Assembly (NCBI GenBank): GCA_963706285.1
Contig: CAVPLU010000004.1
Span: 288,001 to 352,000 of the forward strand
Source of the DNA: Candidatus Bathyarchaeota archaeon
GTDB taxonomy: Archaea; Thermoproteota; Bathyarchaeia; 40CM-2-53-6
Direction of reading: 5' to 3'
DNA: 64,000 nucleotides
The notes beneath the pieces are model-generated. The model did not search any database and was not told the origin of the DNA. It was given only the letters and a program-made list of their open reading frames with translations. Made by a program: the position numbers and the translations under genes. Below, one piece after another: positions 4,939-60,319 of this stretch (position 1 is the first letter of the stretch; each line of letters opens with the position of its first letter).

Positions 4939-5472
4939 TTAGTTCCTGGCGAAGTTTTCGGGAGTCTGATTCTCGAAGAGTCCGCGATAGTGACCCGTTC
5001 CAATCGTTCTCTGAAGAATGAGTTGGCAGACTGCAGTATGCGGAAATATCTCAAGCGGAGATGGACCAAAGTTGCTTAACTCGAGAACCTGATGATTCGA
5101 TATACCCGGCTGCACAAAACTCGCAGAAATGTGAACTAGCAATCCCAGTCTTGAGAACCGGCTGCGCCCTTCGAGCCACCCGCACACGTTGTCTGGCAGT
5201 GTCACCTTCTCTTCAGTTATGCCCAGGACAGTCTCGCTGGGACTTAGTTGGATCCCCGACCCACGTGGAACGCGAATCCCCCGGGTTGCCCTCCTAAAGT
5301 CGGTCAGGTCGGTAACTGGAAGAACCTTGTGCGGCGACTGAAAAACTCGAAACGCATTCGCTAGGTGCAAGTCGATTGAGGCAGCTCTGACGCAACTTGA
5401 CCGGAACGGTTCAATCTTGACCTTTCGAGCTTTGATTTCCCGTAGAATCTCACTTCTCGCCAGAACACTCAC
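4939..5472 (-). CDS. dcd: dCTP deaminase
   Basis: ASIDLHL, EGRSRFSRLGLLVH, LELSN and CQL motifs; GTG start at 5472 inferred. Confidence 0.92.
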   Translation of the reverse strand: MSVLARSEILREIKARKVKIEPFRSSCVRAASIDLHLANAFRVFQSPHKVLPVTDLTDFRRATRGIRVPRGSGIQLSPSETVLGITEEKVTLPDNVCGWLEGRSRFSRLGLLVHISASFVQPGISNHQVLELSNFGPSPLEIFPHTAVCQLILQRTIGTGHYRGLFENQTPENFARN

Positions 5473-5559
5473 ACATGATACCTCTAATTGAAAGCCCGCT
5501 TGAGCCACTGATGGCAGTAGGGCTATTTCAAACAAGCGCGGTTGTGGGCGAATTTGGTT

Positions 5560-25730: not shown

Positions 25731-25893
25731 TGGCGCCGCCGGAAGGATTCGAACCTCTAGTCGCGCCCGCGCGCTTCGACCAACGGGTCGCTGCCATGTG
25801 GCTAACAGCTTCAGCCTCAATCTTCTCGATTGAGTCCGCTGCTCTGCCACTGAGCTATCGTCTATGATCAAAGGATTGATCGTAAACGGCGGC
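25731..25893 (-). tRNA. tRNA-Asn(GTT) with four introns (8/9, 30/31, 37/38, 50/51)
   Basis: Removing 25885-25857, 25835-25810, 25802-25789 and 25775-25757 gives GCCGCCGTAGCTCAGTGGCAGAGCAGCGGGCTGTTAACCCGTTGGTCGAAGGTTCGAATCCTTCCGGCGGCGCCA, a 75-nt cloverleaf with encoded CCA. Confidence 0.92.
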
Positions 25894-25932
25894 TCTATTC
25901 GGCGGCACCGATTTCACGGAGCCTCAAGCCGC

Positions 25933-54750: not shown

Positions 54751-54884
54751 GCTCCGGTAGTATAGCCCGGTCATGCGCAAAGCGCCGAGAGTATGCTGGC
54801 CTCTCGCGACACATCGGAGAAAGCCAGCGACGCGGGTTCAAAATGATCAAGAAGACAGATCATGAAAATCCCGCCCGGAGCACC
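54751..54884 (+). tRNA. tRNA-Glu(CTC) with three introns (D-loop, 37/38, 59/60)
   Basis: Removing 54774-54789, 54807-54821 and 54843-54867 gives GCTCCGGTAGTATAGCCCGGTCAAGTATGCTGGCCTCTCGAGCCAGCGACGCGGGTTCAAATCCCGCCCGGAGCACCA (78 nt). Confidence 0.93.
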
Positions 54885-54905
54885 AAGCTAGCACAAACGA
54901 ACTGG

Positions 54906-60134: not shown

Positions 60135-60194
60135 GCGTCAGAGCTTGGGGCTACATAGCTAAATAGTTGCGAACGTCGGTCTAGGAATGGGCCC

Positions 60195-60319
60195 GGGCCC
60201 GTAAGGAAATGAGAATCCCGGGAAGCTCAGCCAGGTTGGAGCGACCGTAACACGTCCATGGGACAAAGTTGTCGAAGCTCATAACCGGTTGGTCGGGCGT
60301 TCAAATCGCCCCGGGCCCA
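60195..60319 (+). tRNA. tRNA-Ile2(CAT) with two introns (9/10, 30/31)
   Basis: Removing 60204-60224 and 60248-60276 gives GGGCCCGTAGCTCAGCCAGGTTGGAGCGACCGGCTCATAACCGGTTGGTCGGGCGTTCAAATCGCCCCGGGCCCA. The GGGCCC acceptor favours Ile2 over Met (inference). TAAATA at 60160-60165. Confidence 0.9.

Follow-up and report, generated by a model that had tools for sequence, protein, structure and literature searches.

A tRNA-Asn(GTT) gene with four introns, located on the minus strand at 25893–25731 of the window (the whole stretch of 64,000 nucleotides that was analysed), is preceded by a leader carrying a second copy of its 5′ acceptor strand. This decoy, GGTGCCGCCG (minus strand, 25909–25900), complements nt 66–75, i.e. 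the 3′ acceptor strand, G73, C74 and C75. It is read here, with a probability of about 0.7, as a surrogate acceptor strand that acts in cis from the 5′ terminus of the primary transcript and would enable the splicing motif of the 8/9 intron to form. The interpretation is supported by the association of the element with early introns, by its sequence conservation and by modelled folding.

Methods

The genome containing the window (G000; 2.13 Mb, 21 contigs, 89% complete) was searched for tRNAs by means of an uninterrupted stretch from the T loop to the 3′ end, together with a complementary 5′ strand upstream; tRNA loci that could not be parsed were left out of the census. Introns were assigned with our own parser, which combines bulge-helix-bulge (BHB) motifs with the cloverleaf and reports each motif score as the number of pairs in the central, outer and inner helix, in that order. 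Pairing of a leader was measured as the longest contiguous run, with at most one G·U pair, between the 45 upstream bases and nt 66–75. For the relatives, the same parser was used; an early intron was defined as a first intron at 7/8 to 9/10, and a leader was taken to carry the element when its run reached 7 bp or more within the 45 upstream nt. Loci that were duplicates, scored low or could not be parsed do not enter the relatives' counts. TATA-like boxes were scored against the loose pattern YTTWAWWR, and since this score is noisy (many tRNAs reach 6/8), spacings were compared only for genes scoring at least 7 of 8. Folding was predicted with ViennaRNA using nearest-neighbour energies, the Asn transcript being begun at 25909.

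The tRNA-Asn(GTT) gene

The whole gene comprises 163 nt, with introns at 8/9, 30/31, 37/38 and 50/51; all of the following coordinates refer to the minus strand. Exon 1 (nt 1–8, 25893–25886) consists of the true 5′ acceptor strand, GCCGCCG at 25893–25887, and U8 at 25886, and is followed by intron 1 (8/9, 29 nt, 25885–25857; scores 3, 4, 2). Exon 2 (nt 9–30, 25856–25836) holds the D arm and the 5′ portion of the anticodon stem, and intron 2 (30/31, 26 nt, 25835–25810; scores 4, 2, 7) takes its central helix from nt 25–28. Exon 3 (nt 31–37, 25809–25803) contains the anticodon GTT and is followed by the canonical intron 3 (37/38, 14 nt, 25802–25789), which scores 4, 6, 1 after removal of intron 2. 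The parsed exon 4 (nt 38–50, 25788–25776) and intron 4 (50/51, 19 nt, 25775–25757; scores 4, 3, 4) precede exon 5 (25756–25731), which comprises nt 51–73 and an encoded CCA. Its 3′ end, 25741–25731, reads CGGCGGC-G-CCA, with the 3′ acceptor strand at 25741–25735, G73 at 25734 and CCA at 25733–25731.

The introns were parsed by hand, and removal of gene positions 9–37, 59–84, 92–105 and 119–137 left a 75-mer that ARAGORN identified as tRNA-Asn(gtt). The top-ranked solution of our own parser had these four introns as well, with a cloverleaf score of 24, the highest that the parser assigned to any gene. [quoted passage not shown] In its unspliced form the gene escapes both ARAGORN and Rfam (at gathering score), which see no tRNA anywhere in the window; the miss is attributable to the four introns and is not evidence against the gene. 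An alternative parse with anticodon GAA was rejected, both of its middle introns having only 3/4 central pairs; it is also contradicted by four relatives with an uninterrupted Asn anticodon loop (L022, L024, L027 and L028). No real open reading frame spans the gene, and none of at least 50 amino acids lies between the two copies of the acceptor strand. The exons are colinear on one strand within the 163 nt and share one promoter, unlike those of a split or permuted gene. Duplication of an attachment site by an integrated element was likewise considered and rejected: the repeat is the 5′ strand, the copies are 6 nt apart, and there is no open reading frame between them.

The gene has matches in 53 of 61 relatives and, class-wide, in 182 of 251 genomes. 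The same four relatives that contradict the GAA parse lack the 37/38 intron, and the 50/51 intron is precisely absent from L007–L009, a presence/absence polymorphism within the genus; the intron boundaries are therefore confirmed by relatives lacking one or the other. DNA run X1 holds a variant joined exactly across the 50/51 intron (loose end at 25774). The public RNA runs X18 and X19 yielded only unspliced pieces of the contig, with no joints, starts or ends among them; these pieces differ in their flanks and therefore derive from relatives. A further public run, X20, yielded nothing. Both strands of the D stem are borrowed in the pre-tRNA, nt 10–13 by the 8/9 motif and nt 23–28 by the 30/31 motif. 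As the 37/38 motif has its full outer helix only once the 30/31 intron has been removed, an order of splicing is implied.

The 8/9 motif and the acceptor stem

According to the description of the hBHBh′ motif in the part of 10.64898/2026.10.13.758758 that deals with it, the central helix has four pairs, formed by the exon bases before the 5′ bulge with the intron bases before the 3′ bulge. At 8/9, the central helix joins nt 3–6 to intron nt 24–27, and the outer helix joins G-2, A-1, G1 and C2 to nt 10–13, two of these four pairs being supplied by leader bases. The inner helix consists of 2 pairs, a mismatch and 6 pairs, so that both flanking helices have at least 2 pairs. The two bulges are of 3 nt each (G7, U8 and intron nt 1; intron nt 28, 29 and A9), and the predicted cut sites are staggered by the central helix. 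A C5·A mismatch leaves this helix with 3/4 pairs, for which reason the motif was counted as relaxed; the sequence GGCG gives 4/4 pairs in L011, L024, L025, L027, L030 and others. L004 and L006 show compensatory changes in the intron 1 inner helix.

Because the motif occupies nt 3–6 and nt −2 to 2, it is mutually exclusive with the acceptor stem. The first-pass annotation of this DNA had drawn the same layout and the same incompatibility, both of which hold, although it did not mention the C·A mismatch.

The leader decoy

The decoy starts 16 bases upstream of G1 and forms 10 contiguous pairs with nt 66–75. An exact leader copy at 25909–25900 and 10 bp with the 3′ end had been described from the sequence alone, and the minus strand bears out both: the 7-nt copy of the 5′ acceptor strand is exact, and the run is 10 bp long, with the qualification, missing from that description, that one pair is a G·U wobble (T with G73). 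When the 45 upstream bases were shuffled 200 times, the longest run averaged 4.6 bp and never exceeded 9 bp, short of the 10 bp observed. Between decoy and gene lies the spacer AATAGA (25899–25894), whose last bases, G-2 and A-1, pair with C13 and U12 and thereby lengthen the 8/9 outer helix. The two copies are thus distinguished by their flanks, the 5′ flank of the decoy matching nt 73–75 and that of the true strand (−2, −1) matching nt 13 and 12.

With two identical strands so close together, the upstream one might be the real 5′ exon, the spacer and the proximal copy then being part of a longer intron. The parser does also build a cloverleaf from the distal copy, which is explained by the identity of nt 1–7. 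The motifs obtained in this way are weaker (Asn 3, 2, 2 instead of 3, 4, 2; Arg 4, 3, 3 instead of 4, 5, 5), position 8 becomes A or C instead of the near-universal U8, with G after the copy in many orthologs, and pair 7–66 is broken wherever the copy ends in T, C or A. This assignment is regarded as very unlikely.

The Asn decoy is kept in 10 of 10 genus orthologs, its last base being G in seven, T in two and C in one, and it is present in all 43 parsed orthologs that have the 8/9 intron. Across orthologs from many families the 7-mer is exact, while the spacer varies in sequence and in length (5–25 nt) and the flanks cannot be aligned. Of the 41 Asn elements, 37 pair over more than 7 bp. For Asn, Ser and family f20, C74–C75 of the encoded CCA fall within the helix, and discriminator and CC are often included. 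The f20 element, GGCGCCGCC, is a perfect complement of nt 67–75 and is therefore directed at the 3′ end instead of being merely a copy of nt 1–7. In one locus (L098), the 3′ strand is better complemented by the decoy than by the true 5′ strand.

A putative promoter, the TATA-like box CTTAAATA (minus strand, 25941–25934; 8/8 matches), lies 32 nt before the decoy and 48 nt before G1, and is kept in 10 of 10 genus orthologs. Among genes with a TATA score of at least 7, the distance from box to decoy is 32, 38, 32 and 28 nt in four early-intron genes, and that from box to G1 is 30–37 nt in 7 of 10 ordinary tRNAs. From this spacing, transcription is predicted to start at the decoy, in agreement with the start near the copy that had been expected from the TATA box. 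A scan for sigma-70 promoters and terminators gave nothing useful and has no relevance to an archaeon.

Folding predictions

With the decoy in place, the helix between decoy and 3′ strand was predicted for the Asn transcript with p of about 1.0, the acceptor stem with p = 0 and the 8/9 outer helix with p = 0.99. Trimming the leader to 6, 2 or 0 nt raised the acceptor stem to p = 0.93–0.98 and left the outer helix at p ≤ 0.05. Cys and Pro gave the same predicted capture of the 3′ strand by the decoy; at no point did RNAfold return the bulged central helix itself. According to the model, the 3′ strand is bound by the decoy and the splicing motif is left free, and the comparison with and without leader supports the idea, already put forward in the first-pass annotation, that the leader sequesters this strand so that the BHB can fold.

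The second half of that idea, an exchange of stems after splicing, did not emerge from the calculations. When the competing helices were forced in five genes, the decoy state was favoured by 4.4–16.8 kcal/mol before splicing and still by 1.9–12.5 kcal/mol afterwards. Splicing narrowed the gap to the native stem in all five genes and reversed the preference in none; after removal of all introns, the acceptor stem had p = 0–0.02 and the decoy helix was still preferred. In the model, the final strand exchange is not accounted for by thermodynamics alone.

Occurrence in the genome

In this partial census of G000, the first intron lies at 7/8, 8/9 or 9/10 in 6 of 29 recognised tRNAs, namely Pro GGG, Asn, Arg CCG, Cys, Ser and CAT. 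These six have runs of 7–10 bp, each against its own 3′ strand, compared with 2–5 bp in the other 23. The spliced Pro, Arg and Cys genes were confirmed by ARAGORN.

The gene for tRNA(CAT) provides a second instance within the window. Its decoy, ATGGGCCC (plus strand, 60187–60194), adjoins G1 with no spacer and complements 7–8 bp of the 3′ strand. Nucleotides 1–73 occupy 60195–60319 (plus strand), interrupted by introns at 9/10 (60204–60224) and in the anticodon arm (60248–60276), both scoring 4, 3, 3; the cloverleaf score is 24, and the decoy was found in 10 of 10 genus orthologs. This tRNA has no encoded CCA and reads TCA.

A tRNA-Ser(GCT) gene (G000:C4, about 5388–5492, minus strand) has its intron at approximately 12/13, no encoded CCA and no leader copy, and so helps to delimit the intron positions that accompany the element. 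The element is also absent from genes with introns at 15/16. A further interrupted tRNA candidate in the window (54751–54885, plus strand; GCTCCGG ... CCGGAGC-A-CCA) has an insertion in the T loop that holds a hairpin, along with further insertions; its nt 1–13 are uninterrupted, and no copy lies upstream. A 5′-anchored scan for tRNAs with interrupted 3′ parts returned only candidates with T-loop introns. In G000 as a whole, ARAGORN reported 26 tRNAs and the Rfam tRNA model 23. Introns are present in the majority of these hits, and a large fraction of this lineage's tRNA genes must therefore escape standard annotation.

Association across relatives

Over all six tRNA families the element was present in 97 of 105 genes with an early intron and in 2 of 81 without one, figures that overstate the number of independent events because the genomes compared are kin. 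Copies are accordingly not equally common in genes lacking such introns, and the co-occurrence that the first-pass annotation had proposed to look for is borne out, with the exception of eight early-intron genes in two genera that have no copy.

Among the 60 Asn loci, 41 of 41 early-intron genes and 0 of 6 others had the element (6 duplicates, 5 unparsed and 2 junk loci dropped). A further 39 Asn loci at class level gave 2 of 2 and 1 of 22 (L144; 5 junk and 10 unparsed loci dropped), for a combined 43 of 43 against 1 of 28. For Arg CCG (30 loci; 3 unparsed and 2 junk dropped), the parser counted 11 of 12 early-intron genes and 1 of 13 others (L062). In the twelfth early gene (L053) it had used the distal copy, and two exact copies were seen by eye, which brings the count to 12 of 12. 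The corresponding values were 18 of 18 and 0 of 3 for Cys (30 loci; 9 unparsed dropped), 10 of 10 and 0 of 3 for CAT (19 loci; 6 unparsed dropped), and 13 of 19 and 0 of 10 for Ser (30 loci; 1 dropped at a contig end). For Pro GGG, where 7-mer copies only and no runs were counted, they were 1 of 3 and 0 of 24 (30 loci; 1 other Pro gene and 2 geneless loci dropped). The contrast between early and non-early genes thus recurs in six tRNA families. Sister genera with identical exons may have neither intron nor element, as found for Arg in L046–L049 and for Ser in genus g4.

It could be objected that GCCGCCG is of low complexity and might recur by chance in GC-rich sequence, the more so as L144 (genome G113) and L062 (G042) lack an early intron but show a match of 7–8 bp at 28 and 37 nt upstream of G1. 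These two matches could be relics of intron loss or indeed chance. As a general account, a chance repeat is refuted by the counts and retains a negligible probability: no shuffled leader reached the observed run, the six tRNAs each match their own acceptor, and the match is conserved in 97 genes.

The eight early-intron genes (8/105) without a run of at least 7 bp all belong to genera g2 and g3. Six are Ser genes (L182, L183, L187, L188, L189 and L191; runs of 3–5 bp) and two are Pro GGG genes (L229 and L233). In these genera, the Ser and Pro genes keep an intron at 7/8 or 8/9, and the Asn and Cys genes do have the element. Leader positions −2 and −1 (GC) of the exceptional Ser genes lengthen the acceptor stem to 9 bp, with a predicted stem p of 0.76–0.98. 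The same genes carry a small conserved leader hairpin. No other sequestering partner was found for the g2 and g3 Ser genes in 80 nt upstream or in an 80-nt trailer. The decoy is therefore not indispensable.

A possible origin in Pro(GGG)

The tRNA-Pro(GGG) gene of G000 (C3:165454–165807; locus L034/L214) has five introns, the first at 7/8, and its spliced form is accepted by ARAGORN. The tRNAscan-SE 2.0 paper, in the passage concerned, gives "up to three" introns for archaeal tRNA genes (PMC8450103), compared with four in the present Asn gene and five in Pro. The Pro(GGG) leader, GGGGCTGGAGTCTAGAC, resembles nt 1–16 of the tRNA as they stand uninterrupted in L215, and among ten genomes of the genus the 7/8 intron and the copy were seen only in G000. 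Genome G001 has a matching piece on a separate contig. The resemblance points to a duplication origin, and the sequence hints that intron gain was accompanied here by partial duplication of the 5′ exon.

For young cases of this kind, the resemblance also keeps alive the view that the upstream copy is a neutral, functionless scar of intron gain through such a duplication. The apparently recent Pro(GGG) leader is what it would look like, and the exceptions show that an intron can persist without a copy. A scar would be expected to decay along with its surroundings, whereas the 7-mer is exact in many families with diverged spacer and flanks. Copying of the 5′ exon does not yield the extension that pairs with nt 73–75, nor the f20 element, and the promoter has shifted such that the copy now sits at the predicted start. 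A mere scar is held to be improbable.

Proposed mechanism

Transcription would start at or slightly ahead of the decoy, judging from the TATA spacing. The local 8/9 BHB, as laid out from the sequence, could then fold from nt −2 to 13 and the intron, using nt 1–6. The newly made 3′ acceptor strand is predicted by folding to pair with the free decoy (8–10 bp, to G73 and C74–C75), by which the motif would be spared. The intron would presumably be removed by splicing endonuclease and ligase, after which the true 5′ strand would displace the decoy and the leader would be removed by RNase P. The genome encodes an RNase P RNA (183.7 bits). Since folding disfavours the final exchange, an irreversible or protein-driven step is probably needed. 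The BHB is a local structure that emerges over 100 nt earlier in transcription than the 3′ strand; if cleaved co-transcriptionally, it might do without a decoy.

The helix of decoy and 3′ strand, stacked on the T arm, could instead serve as an acceptor-like end for other processing, help to the motif being secondary. Protection or definition of the CCA end, 3′ trimming or modification, and enforcement of the order "splice first, RNase P later" are roles of this kind. Such a function would suit the inclusion of C74–C75 of the encoded CCA in Asn, Ser and f20, the position of the decoy helix next to the T stem like that of a real acceptor stem, the preference for this helix even after splicing, and the eight intron-bearing genes that lack a decoy. 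It leaves unexplained the restriction of the element to genes in which the intron takes up nt 2–7 (97/105 versus 2/81), and its absence with the 12/13 intron of Ser(GCT) and with 15/16 introns. We consider this account possible but unlikely; it overlaps with the motif-enabling one because the physical state is identical in both.

In a more far-reaching form of the motif-enabling reading, which we would put at even odds, the surrogate acceptor strand with which the transcript begins would be selected throughout the class as a folding switch. It would license introns at 7/8 to 9/10, force splicing to precede 5′ maturation, and be born by partial duplication of the 5′ exon at intron gain.

The question of how a BHB forms against a 7-bp G+C-rich acceptor stem has apparently gone unaddressed so far within the literature searched. 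If the proposal is true, archaeal tRNA maturation gains a new cis-acting component, an order of processing is predicted together with its intermediate (spliced, leader-bearing and decoy-paired), and birth by duplication offers a first handle on the origin of such introns. The decoy is also a signature by which gene finders could catch tRNAs that are currently missed.

Comparison with known systems

In the full-text literature searched, which for this subject comprised reviews and methods papers, no description of a leader element of this kind was found. Within that literature, the decoy is supported as an undescribed variant within archaeal tRNA intron processing. In the relevant passages of two papers (PMC4090602, PMC8450103), archaeal non-canonical introns are described as having a 4-bp helix and two 3-nt bulges built from exon and intron bases, with the cloverleaf being sacrificed, and several introns may occur in one tRNA gene, one of which may need removal before the next motif can form. 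The BHB introns treated there, including those at 3/4 in Thermoproteales, follow the same motif logic as the 8/9 intron of tRNA-Asn; those passages mention no pairing of a leader with the 3′ acceptor strand and do not list positions 7/8, 8/9 and 9/10 (PMC4090602, PMC8450103).

The split and permuted tRNA genes of Nanoarchaeum, Caldivirga, Thermofilum and red algae likewise have leaders or trailers selected for splicing-enabling pairing, and in the passages that deal with them compensatory change is read as a mark of such selection (PMC3218864, PMC4033280). As described there, these flanks pair with one another and build the motif itself between two transcripts or permuted ends (PMC3218864, PMC4033280). 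The decoy, in contrast, would act within a single transcript of normal order, its leader pairing with a part of the mature tRNA and keeping the latter off the motif.

In attenuators and riboswitch expression platforms, one strand has two possible partners, and the helix that forms decides the next step of the RNA. The decoy system would share the strand with two partners but involves no ligand, ribosome or terminator; its competitors are identical copies, and it would be reset by cutting and joining of the RNA. In bacterial and eukaryotic pre-tRNAs, a leader paired with the 3′ side of the acceptor blocks 5′ maturation by RNase P until the pairing is resolved. Such pairing is treated as an incidental hindrance, whereas the decoy is conserved and tied to the position of the intron.
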